Shown here: positions 1,552-7,296 of the stretch, piece after piece
Layout of the letters: each line of letters opens with the position of its first letter
Position numbering within the stretch: position 1 is the first letter of the stretch
Source: a virus
Lineage: Duplodnaviria; Heunggongvirae; Uroviricota; Caudoviricetes
Strand: one strand, 5' to 3'
Virus record (IMG/VR): IMGVR_UViG_3300027126_000001
Length of the DNA: 64,000 nucleotides
Made by a program: the position numbers and the translations under genes
The notes under the pieces: model-generated
The model's database searches: none
What the model was told of the DNA's origin: nothing
The model's input: the letters and a program-made list of their open reading frames with translations, nothing else

Positions 1552-1572
1552 GCTTTTTTTAATTTATTTTTG

Positions 1573-1643
1573 AGGGCAGTGTTGGAATCGAACCAACCTA
1601 ACAGAGTTTGCAATCCTGTGCCTAACCAATCGGCCAACTGCCC
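1573..1643 (-). tRNA. tRNA-Cys(GCA)
   Basis: GGGCAGT/ACTGCCC, U73, loop TTGCAAA. Confidence 0.85.
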
Positions 1644-1647
1644 CTTA

Positions 1648-1731
1648 TAAAATAGTCGCTCTACCATTACAGCTAAATCTTGGTCATCACGATTACGATT
1701 GTTGGAATCGAACCAACGTCCTACTATTTTA
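1648..1731 (-). ncRNA. Circularly permuted tRNA-like RNA (YrlA/Y RNA-like architecture)
   Basis: TAAAATAGT-AGGAC-[GTTGG TTCGATT CCAAC]-closed acceptor-like segment-[TAGCTGTAATGGTAGAGC]-G-ACTATTTTA; 9-bp terminal helix sits where the anticodon stem would be. Confidence 0.7.
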
Positions 1732-1747
1732 ATTTCTTTCTTATACT

Positions 1748-1778
1748 TAAATATACGAACTTTATTTTTAATATCCAA
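1748..1778 (-). promoter_or_regulatory. Bacteroidota-type promoter upstream of the permuted RNA and tRNA-Cys
   Basis: TTG-gatattaaaaataaagttcg-TATATTTA, nearly identical to 1521-1551. Confidence 0.75.
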
Positions 1779-2489
1779 CTAAAAGAATAAAAATGTTTCC
1801 CATTCTTTAGGAATATCTTGAACCTGTCTTAGTAACATTAAATAATGTGGTCGTTTAGGTTCTGGGATATCTTTTCCATATTCTTCTAATGTTAAATCTG
1901 CTTTTTCATGATTACATGTTCTGCAAGCTGTAACTAAATTATCCCATGAATCTTTTCCTCCTTTTGATTGAGGAATAACATGATCTAATGTTAGTGTTCT
2001 TTGATTTGAACTACCACAGTAAACACATTCATAATTATCTCTCTTATAGACGTTTTCTCTATTTAGAGGTACTTTGTGAATATTTTGTTTAACATAACTA
2101 AATACTCTAATGATAGAAGGTTTAAAAATTTCCAATTTTGGATTTACTAAACCAAATGTTTCTGGATGTTCAGCTATTACTTCTGCATTACCTTTGTAAG
2201 AAATCACAAATGCTCTTTCTACTGGTATGATACTTCTGGCGATAAAGCTCGAATCCACTACTAGTGCTTTTTGATACTTACTCATGATAACTTGTTTTAA
2301 AGGTTTATATTGTGTTTTTCTGTTGTACTTCCAAGTTTTATGTTCTCGGTATTTATGGTTAAACTGACCTTTTCTGTAATAAACACCCTCATCCCAATAA
2401 GGTGGGTATTCAAATTTTAATAGGATTAATTTATAATCTTTAGAACAAGTTGCTTTGTTCAATCTTTGCCTGTTAGTGCGTGTACTCAT
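1779..2489 (-). CDS. McrA-like HNH endonuclease (core probably from Met at 2285), in frame with an N-terminal basic ~62-aa peptide
   Basis: RDNYECVYCG...LTLDHVIPQSKGGKDSWDNLVTACRTCNHEK. Confidence 0.85.
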   Translation of the reverse strand: MSTRTNRQRLNKATCSKDYKLILLKFEYPPYWDEGVYYRKGQFNHKYREHKTWKYNRKTQYKPLKQVIMSKYQKALVVDSSFIARSIIPVERAFVISYKGNAEVIAEHPETFGLVNPKLEIFKPSIIRVFSYVKQNIHKVPLNRENVYKRDNYECVYCGSSNQRTLTLDHVIPQSKGGKDSWDNLVTACRTCNHEKADLTLEEYGKDIPEPKRPHYLMLLRQVQDIPKEWETFLFF

Positions 2490-2515
2490 TTTGCTCGAAT
2501 TTTAGGTTAATAAAC

Positions 2516-2767
2516 CTAATGAGCATCGAATTCTATTTTCATAATTAATTTTATTAAATATTTTAAATCTTCAATTGAATTAATAGTATTATTAAATTTT
2601 AAAAATCTATTTTGATTTTGAATTAATTCGATTGTTAACCAATTTTCTACAGACCAATTATTCTGTAAAAAATGAATTTTAAATTCATTAAAAATATAAA
2701 TTCCTGAATTATAATGTAATTCTTTAAAATTATTTTTTATTAATAATTCTCTAATATCTAGTCTCAT
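2516..2767 (-). CDS. Hypothetical protein
   Basis: 83-aa ORF filling an AT-rich gap in the array; no motif. Confidence 0.5.
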   Translation of the reverse strand: MRLDIRELLIKNNFKELHYNSGIYIFNEFKIHFLQNNWSVENWLTIELIQNQNRFLKFNNTINSIEDLKYLIKLIMKIEFDAH

Positions 2768-2866
2768 AACTTTTTTTATGATTTTTTAAAATCTTAATTT
2801 CTTCCGGAGAAACTGTTAAGGGGTAGCCTAACGGAATTTGACCCTTAATCTGTTCTCCTTCTTCTG

Positions 2867-2937
2867 CGCAGACCGTAGGAATCGAACCTACCCGTAGCAG
2901 TTTTGGAGACCGTACCGACACCTTGTCTGTGACCCGC
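2867..2937 (-). tRNA. tRNA-Trp(CCA)
   Basis: Loop CTCCAAA; G73; T loop TTCGATT. Confidence 0.85.
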
Positions 2938-3030
2938 ATTTGTAGAGTATCGCTTACTCTACCAAAGTTGATCAGACTTCTTTAATAGCTCTTTTGATAT
3001 AATCATCTGTCTATCCATGCGATTTTTTTG

Positions 3031-3102
3031 TACCCCATCCAGGAATCGAACCTAGAACTAATCTTTAGAAGAGATTCGTTATATCCGTTTAACTAATAGG
3101 GC
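3031..3102 (-). tRNA. tRNA-Arg(TCT)
   Basis: AATCT-CTTCTAA-AGATT. Confidence 0.9.
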
Positions 3103-3107
3103 AGTTG

Positions 3108-3179
3108 AGGTCCTAAAAGGGATCGAACCTTTGTTGTATCGTTCGTAGCGATAAGTTTTTCCAATTAAACTATAAGACC
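3108..3179 (-). tRNA. tRNA-Arg(ACG)
   Basis: TATCG-CTACGAA-CGATA. Confidence 0.9.
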
Positions 3180-3185
3180 AATTTT

Positions 3186-3258
3186 GGGTGATTCCGGGTT
3201 TCGAACCCTGTTCTCTTCATTCACAGTGAAGCACTTTACCAATTAAGCTAGAACCACC
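3186..3258 (-). tRNA. tRNA-His(GTG)
   Basis: CTTCA-CTGTGAA-TGAAG; C73. Confidence 0.85.
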
Positions 3259-3264
3259 ATATTG

Positions 3265-3333
3265 TACCGACTACAAGTTACGCTCTTGTCTGAGAATACT
3301 TATGAGATATTCTCGATCCTAGATCAAGTCGGT
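3265..3333 (-). tRNA. Aberrant tRNA-Met(CAT)-like RNA (69 nt, minimal D arm, T loop AGCGTAA)
   Basis: Perfect ACCGACT/AGTCGGT acceptor; 8-bp GAGAATAT/GTATTCTC stem with CTCATAA loop. Confidence 0.65.
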
Positions 3334-3338
3334 AGTTG

Positions 3339-3423
3339 AGGAAAGCATCGTACTCGAAACGAACCCGTTTTATCGAGCGATTGCCTTAGCAGGGCATCCT
3401 AACACCTTGTCAGTTTACTTTCC
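3339..3423 (-). tRNA. tRNA-Ser(GCT)
   Basis: Loop CTGCTAA; long variable arm. Confidence 0.85.
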
Positions 3424-3429
3424 ATTTTG

Positions 3430-3501
3430 TACTCCTAGGAAGAATTGAACTTCCATTTCATCCTTATCAGAGATGTGTGCTAACCATTCTACTATAGGAG
3501 C
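3430..3501 (-). tRNA. tRNA-Ile(GAT)
   Basis: CATCT-CTGATAA-GGATG. Confidence 0.9.
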
Positions 3502-3509
3502 AATTTTTG

Positions 3510-3584
3510 CTGATCTGACAGGACTCGAACCTGCTATCCTAGGTTTAACAAACCTCCGCTGTATACCACTTAAGCTTCAGATCA
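3510..3584 (-). tRNA. tRNA-Asn(GTT)
   Basis: Loop TTGTTAA; G73. Confidence 0.9.
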
Positions 3585-3588
3585 ATTT

Positions 3589-3760
3589 TGAGCCACATAA
3601 CAGGAATCGAACCTGTCTGCTAAATCTTGTCAAATACTCTCATCTTGTCGACCTTTCAGAGGCATATTCTATTTAACCCTTTATGACTTTCCACCTTACG
3701 TCTAAGACAGTCCATACATACCTGATTAAAAGATCCAGTCGTCACCGTTGACTATGGACT
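3589..3760 (-). pseudogene. Chimeric/degenerate tRNA-like element (Lys-like 5' half, ~100-nt insert, intact T arm)
   Basis: D-arm-like TAGTCAACGGTGACG, loop CTTTTAA, distant ACAGG-TTCGATT-CCTGT. Confidence 0.45.
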
Positions 3761-3766
3761 TGTTTG

Positions 3767-3839
3767 TGGGTCCTGCAGGAATCGAACCTGCTCCTTTCGC
3801 TCTTCAGGCGGACGTACGAACCATCTATACGAAAGACCC
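3767..3839 (-). tRNA. tRNA-Phe(GAA)
   Basis: Loop CTGAAGA; GGGTCTT/AGGACCC acceptor. Confidence 0.9.
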
Positions 3840-3978
3840 ATACTCCCTTCGTTGGTACTTGCCGTTTCTTAAGTCGACACTTTCCCCGTGCTTGTTTTAT
3901 TTAAGTGTACTTCCCTACTGGGAACCTGAAGTCAACACTTTTTGTGTATCTTAAGATACTCTGTCGTGAGAAACGTTG

Positions 3979-4060
3979 TGGAACCTGGTGGACTCGAACC
4001 ACTCCCTATAAGGACGAGATTTACAGTCTCGCTGTCGTATCCGAACGACTTTCAGTTTCC
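3979..4060 (-). tRNA. tRNA-Tyr(GTA)
   Basis: CGAGA-CTGTAAA-TCTCG; long variable arm. Confidence 0.9.
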
Positions 4061-4068
4061 AATTTTTG

Positions 4069-4139
4069 TACCTCGTGATGGTTACGCTCCACCGCCTTTT
4101 GAATGTAAATCAAAAACGCTTCTATTACGCCAACGAGGC
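4069..4139 (-). tRNA. tRNA-Val(TAC), non-canonical T loop AGCGTAA
   Basis: TTTGA-TTTACAT-TCAAA; GCCTCGT/ACGAGGT acceptor. Confidence 0.75.
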
Positions 4140-4147
4140 AATTTTTG

Positions 4148-4219
4148 TACCCCCACCAAGAATCGAACTTGGATTCCTATATTAAAAGTATAGTACTTTA
4201 GCCGTTAAGTTATAGGGGC
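4148..4219 (-). tRNA. tRNA-Lys(TTT)
   Basis: CTATA-CTTTTAA-TATAG. Confidence 0.9.
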
Positions 4220-4225
4220 AATTTG

Positions 4226-4301
4226 TCTGATAGGCAAGATTCGAACTTGCGTGCTCTGCGGTCCAAGTGCAGCGAGATAAACCGGACTCCTCTACTACCA
4301 G
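4226..4301 (-). tRNA. tRNA-Pro(TGG)
   Basis: Loop CTTGGAC; D loop GGAGTCCGGTTTATC. Confidence 0.9.
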
Positions 4302-4388: not shown

Positions 4389-4482
4389 CGGAGAATATAG
4401 GATTCGAACCCATACACCCTTTTAATGATCGACGCATTTCAAGTGCGCTGCCGGTACCCAGAATCTTTCGGCTTAATCCTCC
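4389..4482 (-). tRNA. tRNA-Ser(TGA) with enlarged D loop
   Basis: GCGCA-CTTGAAA-TGCGT; long variable arm; G73. Confidence 0.85.
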
Positions 4483-5369: not shown

Positions 5370-5484
5370 TAGTCAGGACAGGACTCGAACCTGTTCGATT
5401 TCACCGTAGGACGTAACGAGCATGTTACTTTCCGAGTGTTACTACATCCCCTCACCTCTGCGTCTACCCATCCGCCACCTGACT
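5370..5484 (-). ncRNA. Leu-like tRNA mimic with the anticodon/variable region replaced by ~65 nt
   Basis: AGTCAGG/CCTGACT acceptor, TGGCGGATGGGTAGACGC D arm, ACAGG-TTCGAGT-CCTGT T arm; no canonical anticodon arm. Confidence 0.6.
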
Positions 5485-6060: not shown

Positions 6061-6091
6061 TAAATATACGAAATTTATTCCGTTTCAGCAA
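6061..6091 (-). promoter_or_regulatory. Bacteroidota-type promoter
   Basis: TTG-N20-TATATTTA. Confidence 0.75.
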
Positions 6092-6359
6092 CTAATTCAT
6101 AAGTTTTTTCAAAAATATCTGGTTTGCATGGATAAAATTCTCCTTGTACTCCTTTTATGATAAAGTCACCTGGAATGGCTGTCATAATTCCTTCTAATGT
6201 ATTGATTTGCCAGTAGCATCCTTTTGGGTTATTTTCTGATGGCTCTAACACAGGAGAAGCATAAACTTTTCCTTCTGACCATTTTTTAATTTCAAACTCA
6301 GTTTGTTCTGATATTTGAACTGCTTCAATTACAACTGGTTTCTTTCTATAAAGTGGCAT
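6075..6359 (-). CDS. Conserved phage protein (YRKKPVVIEAVQ / PGDFII family)
   Basis: YRKKPVVIEAVQ...TLEGIMTAIPGDFIIKGVQGEFYPCKPDIFEKTYE. Confidence 0.8.
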   Translation of the reverse strand: MPLYRKKPVVIEAVQISEQTEFEIKKWSEGKVYASPVLEPSENNPKGCYWQINTLEGIMTAIPGDFIIKGVQGEFYPCKPDIFEKTYELVAETE

Positions 6360-7296
6360 GATTTTCTAATACTTTTGTTACTTCTGTTACTACATGTTCC
6401 CATGTTACTGGTCCTGTTTCGTCTGCATAAGGAGCTGGGTCAGGTCTTCCTAATTTAATAAATGCTTCTACTCTTTCAACTGATGAAGCTGATTTATAGT
6501 CTGAGTACCATTCTCCTTCTTTAATTATTTCGAAAGTATGCTCATCATATTCTGCTCCAAGAAATAACGGCTTGTATGAAGTATTAGTTCTTGAATATAC
6601 TTCATCAAAATCTAAATACAATTCTTTACATAATACTTCTCCGTCTTGTAGAATAGTAAATTTATCTCCTTCCAAATAAGGTGTAAAATAGCCTACTCTT
6701 TCTGCTTCCCAATTTCCAATTCTAAAGGCTGCATCATCTGCATCTCTAAATTCTTGTCTACAGTCTGGATAAATAGCATGATCTCCACTGTGGATTCCCA
6801 TTGCAATATCACAAGTCTCTCCTGTACGATTTGCAACTGATAAAGCTACTGCTTGAGTAATAGAAGCAAATATTTTGTTTCTGTTAGGAACAACTGTTGC
6901 TTTCATATTATCTTCTGCATAATGACCTTCTGGTACTTCTTCACCTCCTGTTACTAAAGCTGAGTCTAATAAATCAACTAATCCATTTAATTGAATTTGA
7001 CGGTAGTTAATTGGATTAATCATTACTTCATTGAAAATTCTCTCTCTATCTCCAAATTCATCATCTCCATTCTTTTCTTGTAGAAAATCTTTAAGTGCTT
7101 GAGGTTGAACTACCAAAATATTATTAATATAATCTACTAATGATTGAGCTCTCTCTAGCTCTACTCTATGTTTTTGACCATAGTCAAATGAAATAGCTGT
7201 TACACTATCATACTCTTTTAGACATCTAAGTAACAAAGTACTTGAGTCCATCCCGCCGCTGGCGCTAACAACTACGTGTCGTTTTGCTTTTTGCAT
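6346..7296 (-). CDS. queC: 7-cyano-7-deazaguanine synthase QueC
   Basis: SGGMDSST PP-loop, FDYGQKH, VVPNRN, IHSGDHAIYPDCR. Confidence 0.92.
   Translation of the reverse strand: MQKAKRHVVVSASGGMDSSTLLLRCLKEYDSVTAISFDYGQKHRVELERAQSLVDYINNILVVQPQALKDFLQEKNGDDEFGDRERIFNEVMINPINYRQIQLNGLVDLLDSALVTGGEEVPEGHYAEDNMKATVVPNRNKIFASITQAVALSVANRTGETCDIAMGIHSGDHAIYPDCRQEFRDADDAAFRIGNWEAERVGYFTPYLEGDKFTILQDGEVLCKELYLDFDEVYSRTNTSYKPLFLGAEYDEHTFEIIKEGEWYSDYKSASSVERVEAFIKLGRPDPAPYADETGPVTWEHVVTEVTKVLENHATL

Follow-up and report, generated by a model that had tools for sequence, protein, structure and literature searches.

The stretch of DNA considered here (IMG/VR record IMGVR_UViG_3300027126_000001, whose 64,000 nucleotides [nt] are together referred to as the window) derives from a T4-like myovirus, as evidenced by its Gp23 capsid, Gp20 portal, gp32, and T4-type terminase. 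The phage, whose relatives include Flavobacterium phage immuto and Cellulophaga phages, occurs in river and lake metagenomes. On the minus strand, which carries all of the features of this locus, an 84-nt element (positions 1648 to 1731) is predicted to specify the core of a permuted tRNA-like RNA, here termed the A-type module. It is flanked upstream by a gene for an HNH homing-type endonuclease (1779 to 2489; Pfam HNH_5, E = 3.5e-16) and downstream by a tRNA-Cys(GCA) gene (1572 to 1643), the latter being called by ARAGORN and matching the Rfam tRNA model with 52.8 bits. A promoter-like module, TTGGATATTA..GTTCGTATATTTAAGTATAAG (1740 to 1778), precedes the element and is the predicted driver of both the element and tRNA-Cys, while a 4-nt spacer, UAAG (1644 to 1647), separates the two. 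An open reading frame (ORF) of 81 amino acids with a TTG start (1533 to 1778) overlaps the promoter, the element, and tRNA-Cys.

The element is composed of tRNA parts in a permuted order, without an anticodon loop or a free acceptor end. The 5′ strand of a closing helix, UAAAAUAGU (1723 to 1731), replaces the 3′ strand of an anticodon stem and is followed by a variable-loop-like AGGAC (1718 to 1722; 5 nt, assigned by reading of the sequence to tRNA positions 44 to 48) and by a T arm, GUUGG-UUCGAUU-CCAAC (1701 to 1717), which is the same in all 17 copies described below. What would be the acceptor is a sealed arm, AAUC-GUAAU-CGUG-AUGAC-CAA-GAUU (1676 to 1700), in which the stem AAUC/GAUU encloses an inner hairpin, GUAAU-CGUG-AUGAC, and a 3-nt bulge, CAA. 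U8-A9 and a D arm with G18 G19, GCUG-UAAUGGUA-GAGC (1658 to 1675), which align to the D arm of the Rfam YrlA model, lead through a G26-like base (1657) to the 3′ strand of the closing helix, ACUAUUUUA (1648 to 1656), forming nine perfect base pairs (bp) with positions 1723 to 1731. The permuted order had been proposed in an earlier note on this DNA, every sequence detail of which proved correct on re-reading; the same applies to its statements that the 17-nt T arm is an exact copy of that in tRNA-Cys (1581 to 1597) and that the element ends 4 nt before this tRNA, UAAG occupying positions 1647 to 1644 and tRNA-Cys beginning at 1643.

Among the features characteristic of tRNAs, U8, G18 G19, A21, G46, C48, G53:C61, U54, U55, C56, A58, and the T loop UUCGAUU are kept, and the combination at 26:44 switches jointly from G.A to U.G. 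It therefore appears likely, on the basis of these features, that the RNA would adopt an L shape by means of a T-loop/D-loop elbow, with a core that is non-canonical. The element lacks an anticodon loop and a free acceptor end, and neither decoding nor charging is therefore to be expected. It is called neither by ARAGORN nor by Rfam at its gathering score, each of which detects 18 tRNAs in the window. As a standard tRNA (RF00005) it was tried and rejected, the best alignment reaching 14.6 bits and covering the T arm only, with neither an anticodon loop nor an open 7-bp acceptor stem.

Pattern scans of IMG/VR and JGI metagenomes, followed by searches with R1, a covariance model built on the element (which itself scores 114.9 bits), retrieved 17 loci with 10 distinct sequences at 80 to 115 bits, separated by a wide gap from the background of tRNA-tRNA junctions. 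These homologues fall into two groups. The window group (the window, L010/L011, L190, and L036/L143) belongs to T4-like phages of ~165 kb, which have the closing helix UAAAAUAGU/ACUAUUUUA and the genomic site in common. The second group belongs to an unrelated lineage of ~300-kb jumbo phages and comprises L081, L084, L151, and L185 to L197, on contigs representing 30 to 48% of ~300-kb genomes according to CheckV, together with the complete 322-kb genome G005. Between the window and G005, a 61-nt core is ~90% identical while the flanks are unalignable, and the neighboring proteins of the jumbo-phage loci have no homologue in the 64-kb window except for a mobile GIY-YIG endonuclease. Conservation at the level of the gene is likewise apparent within the window lineage, where the element is 95 to 98% identical as against 77 to 81% for the adjacent HNH gene.

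Where the copies differ within helices, pairing is maintained. In the closing helix, the jumbo-phage allele is UGUAGUGUA/UACAC-ACA (across copies, UGU(A/C)GUGUA/UACAC(-/A)ACA), such that both partners differ between the groups in six of nine pairs, with pairing intact throughout, and the third pair of the acceptor-like stem (columns 34 to 54) is present as U-A, A-U, or C-G, each of these in more than one background. Variation in the inner hairpin is limited to a single pair, U-A to U.G, the remainder of the capped arm being invariant, and the variable loop differs among copies at positions 44, 45, and 47 but not at G46 and C48. Overall, 99.2% of pair cells hold a standard pair and seven pairs are doubly changed, compared with 35 to 45% paired in slid controls, and the covariation score of 0.30 was reached by none of 500 shuffles (0.11 in shuffles). 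RNAalifold, supplied with the same model-fitted alignment and with no structure, recovered the closing helix, the T arm, and the acceptor-like stem. Conservation and covariation of the 9-bp helix and the D arm in relatives had been named beforehand as a check on the prediction; the helix is indeed compensated in the jumbo group, and the D stem is invariant.

A suitable background for these figures is provided by the junctions of tandem tRNA genes, in which the same order of parts arises and dozens of which match R1 at 12 to 40 bits; the anticodon-stem halves at such a junction also pair if both tRNAs are alike. The Rfam YrlA model, in turn, finds a match with an E value of at most 1 in 13 of 14 control genomes. 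Consequently, neither the architecture nor a match of the strength obtained for the window element with that model (15.9 bits) proves anything on its own. From the comparative evidence, which lies above chance, we conclude that the element represents a predicted RNA gene whose structure is maintained by purifying selection. A blastn comparison with 50,697 phage records, in which the region and the gene trio of the jumbo phages served as queries, retrieved no homologue of the element, and the exact core pattern had no match in 185,579 prokaryote species genomes. R1 found no match in two metagenome-assembled genomes, G007, which is from Flavobacteriales, and G008, which holds a relative of this phage. 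A parent tRNA for the D-arm half was not identifiable among the loci, and no description of this element family was found in the literature on orphan phage YrlA RNAs, permuted phage tRNAs, and DUF7873.

The promoter-like module resembles the Bacteroidota −33 TTTG/−7 TAnnTTTG type. A second copy precedes tRNA-Leu (1513 to 1551), and the core of the module occurs six times in the window, on every occasion on the minus (transcribed) strand; a sigma-70 scan, which is not designed for Bacteroidota promoters, placed it at chance level (3 sites versus 2.0 expected). The element had been credited with a promoter of its own (1748 to 1778), which is in fact that of tRNA-Cys: in relatives without the element (L024, L028, L029, L033, and L035), the module stands directly before tRNA-Cys, which makes the element an optional insertion in the leader of tRNA-Cys. 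The earlier note had further suggested that the 3′ end is released by RNase P cleavage of tRNA-Cys. This suggestion holds for three of the four variants of the T4-like lineage (window, L010, and L190), in which the element lies 4 nt from the RNase P site, and it may reasonably be inferred for the window; in L036, ~80 nt and another element intervene, and RNase P release is thus not a rule for the family.

The interval between the HNH gene and tRNA-Cys (window positions 1779 to 1572 and the corresponding interval in relatives L012 to L067) is a hot spot for inserts, ranging from ~45 to ~650 nt and holding at least four kinds of content. In five relatives (L012, L013, L037, L043, and L062), the tRNA-Cys leader is filled by a different conserved element of ~85 nt, CACCUACUACGUAAC...GGUCAGGCUAGGUG, closed by CACCUA/UAGGUG, and this leader element is also present in L036 at positions 4103 to 4170 (+), where no Rfam family matches it. 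The nearest complete relative, G001, has 67% of the words of the window in common with it and an HNH gene that is 97% identical, and carries ~270 nt of unrelated sequence at the site of the element.

In the jumbo-phage loci, the element closes a series of three genes that begins with a second permuted tRNA-like RNA, the B-type module, and continues with an aberrant tRNA-like gene. The region of these two upstream genes is represented by L084 2861 to 3052 (-) and L197 2917 to 3107 (-), and likewise by L081 and L185 to L196. The aberrant tRNA-like gene is 93 nt in length, its D loop being enlarged by a 21-nt insert and its anticodon loop comprising 8 nt, and is called Thr, Pro, or unknown by ARAGORN; it ends 6 to 10 nt before the element in the jumbo loci shown, with the exception of L081, in which a GIY-YIG-like ORF is inserted. 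The B-type module (L084 2951 to 3052 [-]; L197 3011 to 3107 [-]) is located ~115 nt upstream of the element in most of the loci and farther away in L081 and L195, and its closing helix covaries (GGACG/CGUCC, GAGUG/CACUC, and GGGUG/CACCC). It has the same architecture as the element, from which it differs by a canonical D arm (A14 and G15:C48), a short and variable capped arm, and a higher score with the YrlA model, and it is absent from the window. The closing helix of the jumbo-phage element is extended to 14 to 15 bp with a conserved bulge or mismatch and is followed in L191, L193, and L197 by a U-rich, terminator-like run. On the L197 contig, a GOLLD RNA (1881 to 2286 [-]; RF02032, 285 bits) lies ~540 nt downstream of the element, a gene for SmpB (463 to 900 [-]; Pfam E = 2e-46) lies ~1 kb past the GOLLD match, and a T4 Rnl1-like RNA ligase gene (6145 to 7170 [-]) lies 3 kb upstream of the element. 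GOLLD RNA is absent from the window.

The known RNAs closest in design to the element are those of the bacterial YrlA (Y RNA-like A; RF02553) family. These carry near the 5′ end a Ro-binding motif, GNCGAAN0-1G, which is presumed to contact Rsr, are encoded within a few kilobases of a Ro60/TROVE gene on the same strand, and have been described from mycobacteriophages that encode Ro60, all of the phage examples adjoining the phage Ro60 gene (Chen et al. 2014, PMC4201824). The topology attributed to the element in this respect is upheld: the permuted tRNA-like domain, with its T and D stem-loops and loop-closed acceptor-like stem, is found, and the Rfam model aligns the T arm, capped arm, D arm, and closing stem of the element in this order. 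Both are permuted modules closed by a 5′/3′ stem, with a canonical T loop and G18 G19. The score of the window element is 15.9 bits (E = 1.4; a local match to model positions 23 to 86), that of L036 is 23.4 bits, and those of the jumbo copies are 25 to 26 bits, as against a gathering score of 69. The element differs further from YrlA in that it lacks the extended terminal stem, A14, and the Levitt pair, in that its capped arm has an invariant sequence of its own, and in that it stands alone at 84 nt compared with ~114 nt or more. Two Rsr-adjacent, YrlA-like RNAs of Flavobacteriales, the likely host group (L209 643 to 728, 38 bits; L210 543 to 628, 31.7 bits), display the same order of T arm, capped arm, and D arm; they lie downstream of TROVE on the same strand and possess a long two-part outer stem and a conserved 5′ GCCGUAG, none of which applies to the element.

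Beside three of six TROVE (rsr) loci fetched from Flavobacteriales, a Flavo-1 RNA (RF01705, 62 to 78 bits) is located just downstream on the strand opposite to TROVE (L211 698 to 779, L212 2435 to 2512, and L213 2470 to 2547). Flavo-1 RNA may, therefore, be linked to Rsr, the YrlA-like RNAs being situated in two other TROVE loci.

Were the element a true YrlA-family Y RNA, its terminal stem would bind Rsr, the Ro60 orthologue of the host, and the RNA would tether Rsr to a partner such as PNPase. The shared topology is in keeping with such a role, as is the B-type module beside most of the jumbo-phage copies, which matches the whole YrlA model (34.6 to 41 bits, E = 1e-8 to 7e-6), and the 14- to 15-bp stem of these copies with its conserved bulge or mismatch. 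A low score does not in itself exclude membership, since the RNAs linked to Rsr in Flavobacteriales also remain below the gathering score, reaching just the 38 and 31.7 bits given above, and some members of this order do carry TROVE (20 of 301 sampled genomes). The stem expected to hold the Ro site is, however, wholly different between the two phage lineages and consists in the window of 9 perfect bp, and the motif GNCGAAN0-1G is absent from the 5′ flank and strand of both the window (AAGAAAGAAAUUAAAAUAGU) and the jumbo phages (AAAAUGUGUAGUGUA), as is the flavobacterial variant GCCGUAG. Nor was TROVE found among window ORFs of at least 160 amino acids, in agreement with the initial statement for the window, or in six relatives (G001 to G006, of which G001 and G005 are complete), and ~93% of the sampled potential hosts are without it; the phage YrlA RNAs on record, by comparison, all lie beside a phage Ro60 gene. 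RtcB, for which a search had also been suggested, was found neither among window ORFs nor in G001 to G005, and DUF7873 had no match among window ORFs of at least 160 amino acids or among the jumbo-locus neighbors tested. The identification as a Y RNA is, therefore, not sustained, given a score of 15.9 bits against 69, the missing motif, the differing stems, and the rarity of TROVE in hosts. We consider it unlikely. The earlier interpretation is partly supported: the element has the topology of the YrlA module, with no demonstrable membership in the family.

About equally improbable is a role confined to the tRNA operon, in which the element would act in cis as a structured leader aiding the folding or processing of the neighboring tRNA or, in jumbo phages, as a transcription terminator. 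The exact insertion into the tRNA-Cys leader, the short distances to neighboring tRNA or tRNA-like genes (4 nt in the window, L010, and L190; 6 to 10 nt in the jumbo loci shown except L081), and the U-rich runs would suit this role; it is opposed by the differing neighbors of the two lineages and the intervening sequence in L036, by the far greater divergence of the adjacent tRNA-Cys, and by the many relatives in which tRNA-Cys follows the same promoter directly. Moreover, neither a leader nor a terminator needs an invariant capped hairpin and elbow. A junction of tandem tRNAs, with its order of T arm, 3′ acceptor, spacer, 5′ acceptor, and D arm, may well be the origin of the family, and such junctions match YrlA at noise level. 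That the element is merely the non-functional remnant of a junction, with the outer halves lost, would also accord with its dispensability and is nonetheless very improbable in view of the core being 90% identical across two lineages with unalignable flanks, of the exclusively compensatory changes in helices, and of an acceptor-like arm that forms a closed, conserved hairpin instead of two acceptor-stem halves.

The permuted order also recalls the permuted tRNA genes of the red alga Cyanidioschyzon merolae and two-piece tmRNA genes, which encode the 3′ tRNA half first and the products of which are chargeable, with a 7-bp acceptor stem. A working adaptor of this type, i.e., a permuted tRNA or the tRNA-like domain of a two-piece tmRNA, could be read into the ACCA of the capped arm (1684 to 1681), a weak match to Rfam tmRNA_permuted (RF04321; 10.7 bits, E = 4.7), and the SmpB encoded by jumbo phages. 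It is scarcely tenable: as an acceptor stem, the arm offers just five of seven pairs, is sealed, and has ACCA on the wrong side, and there is no anticodon loop, for which reasons both forms were rejected. The tmRNA_permuted match lies far below the gathering threshold of 47 bits, the window yielded no homologue of SmpB, and the start of tRNA-Cys after 4 nt leaves no room for a tag frame; the half order is shared with the algal and tmRNA genes, while the imperfect sealed acceptor arm and the lack of an anticodon loop or tag frame set the element apart. The probability that the stretch is instead protein coding, as might be proposed from the 81-codon frame with its TTG start, is negligible. This frame spans the promoter and the complete tRNA-Cys gene and has no Pfam match, and in the jumbo homologues stops close all three forward frames while the RNA helices are kept. 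The ORF had already been held to be spurious, and where it is called over the element the annotation should be regarded as such.

Weighed against these possibilities, a Ro60-independent, non-chargeable tRNA mimic, processed from a tRNA operon and acting on a factor that recognizes tRNA shape, is in our judgment the probable identity of the element, and a decoy without an anticodon is preferred over a Y RNA. This reading builds on the gene-level conservation, the compensated helices, the genomic placement, and the absence of Ro60 and its motif. As predicted from sequence, the element would be transcribed from the tRNA-Cys promoter as the leader of the tRNA-Cys precursor, released by an RNase P cut at tRNA-Cys +1, and trimmed by tRNA-processing enzymes, its ends being protected by the closing helix. 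Folding through the T-loop/D-loop elbow would then yield a stable mimic of tRNA that shares its design with the tRNA-like module of YrlA and is independent of Ro60/Rsr; the near-invariant elbow and capped acceptor hairpin of this mimic may bind or titrate a host or phage factor that recognizes the tRNA shape.

Several observations weigh against this interpretation. Position 15:48 is A:C in all copies and not a Levitt pair (G15:C48 or A15:U48), and position 14 is U or C instead of A, so that U8:A14 is not kept. In the D region, RNAalifold favors an alternative hairpin (columns 60 to 63 with 68 to 71), in which pairing is retained despite one-sided changes. Folded alone, the element is not exceptionally stable (z = −1.0, an uninformative value). 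The T arm and D stem never vary and are therefore not probed by covariation, and the closing helix exists in only two alleles, such that its six double changes may represent few evolutionary events. Furthermore, the element is missing from G001 and most of the syntenic loci and is thus dispensable. Contigs of a riverine metatranscriptome library (run X1) cover positions 1571 to 4279 without differences and at depths that vary along the region; such RNA-library data are contigs that may contain DNA and cannot show transcription, ends, or strand, and they lend weak support without counting as evidence of expression. One low-depth contig from run X10 joins position 1645 to 1778 across undetermined letters, skipping the element and promoter; with a shorter side of only 30 nt, it suggests at best that a variant lacking the insert exists.

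More tentatively, it is possible that the element and its homologues constitute a new Ro60-independent class of sealed tRNA mimics, spread horizontally among phages of Flavobacteriia (T4-like phages and GOLLD-bearing jumbo phages) and acting in trans via the elbow and the capped hairpin. If so, such RNAs might serve as a decoy or inhibitor of a tRNA-directed defense nuclease, a processing enzyme, or PNPase or, alternatively, in jumbo phages, as a partner or cargo of the neighboring GOLLD RNA. The tRNA-like modules of Y RNAs have been known since 2014, and to our knowledge the binding target of the module itself has never been settled. The presence of the module alone, without a Ro60-binding stem or Ro60 and nearly unchanged in two unrelated lineages, argues for a function of its own, and the element, at 84 nt, provides a minimal form in which to look for the partner of the module. 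The case adds to indications that phage tRNA islands hold more than tRNAs, the jumbo-phage island also encoding SmpB, an RNA ligase, and a GOLLD RNA alongside the second mimic and the aberrant tRNA.

Further features were noted elsewhere in the window. Just after tRNA-Leu, a segment of ~70 nt (1358 to 1426 [-]) is closed by UGUAGG/CCUACA and encloses the hairpins CCUG/CAGG, AGAC/GUCU, and GACC/GGUC, which gives a cloverleaf-like outline without tRNA loops. Two tRNAs missed by ARAGORN are detected by Rfam (3510 to 3584 [-], 48.8 bits; 4389 to 4481 [-], 30.4 bits), and a lone T arm, ACAGG-UUCGAUU-CCUGU (3590 to 3625 [-]), is present just upstream of the former. A stretch of ~120 nt (6089 to 6208) displays 72 to 80% DNA identity to genes for "hypothetical" or PGDYG proteins in many unrelated phages of Staphylococcus, Streptococcus, Enterococcus, Clostridium, and Bacillus. 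Finally, contigs from four metatranscriptome libraries carry the same 34 other letters for 66 nt of the window (5394 to 5461), this variant allele being situated inside an odd, Leu-like tRNA shell (5370 to 5484).

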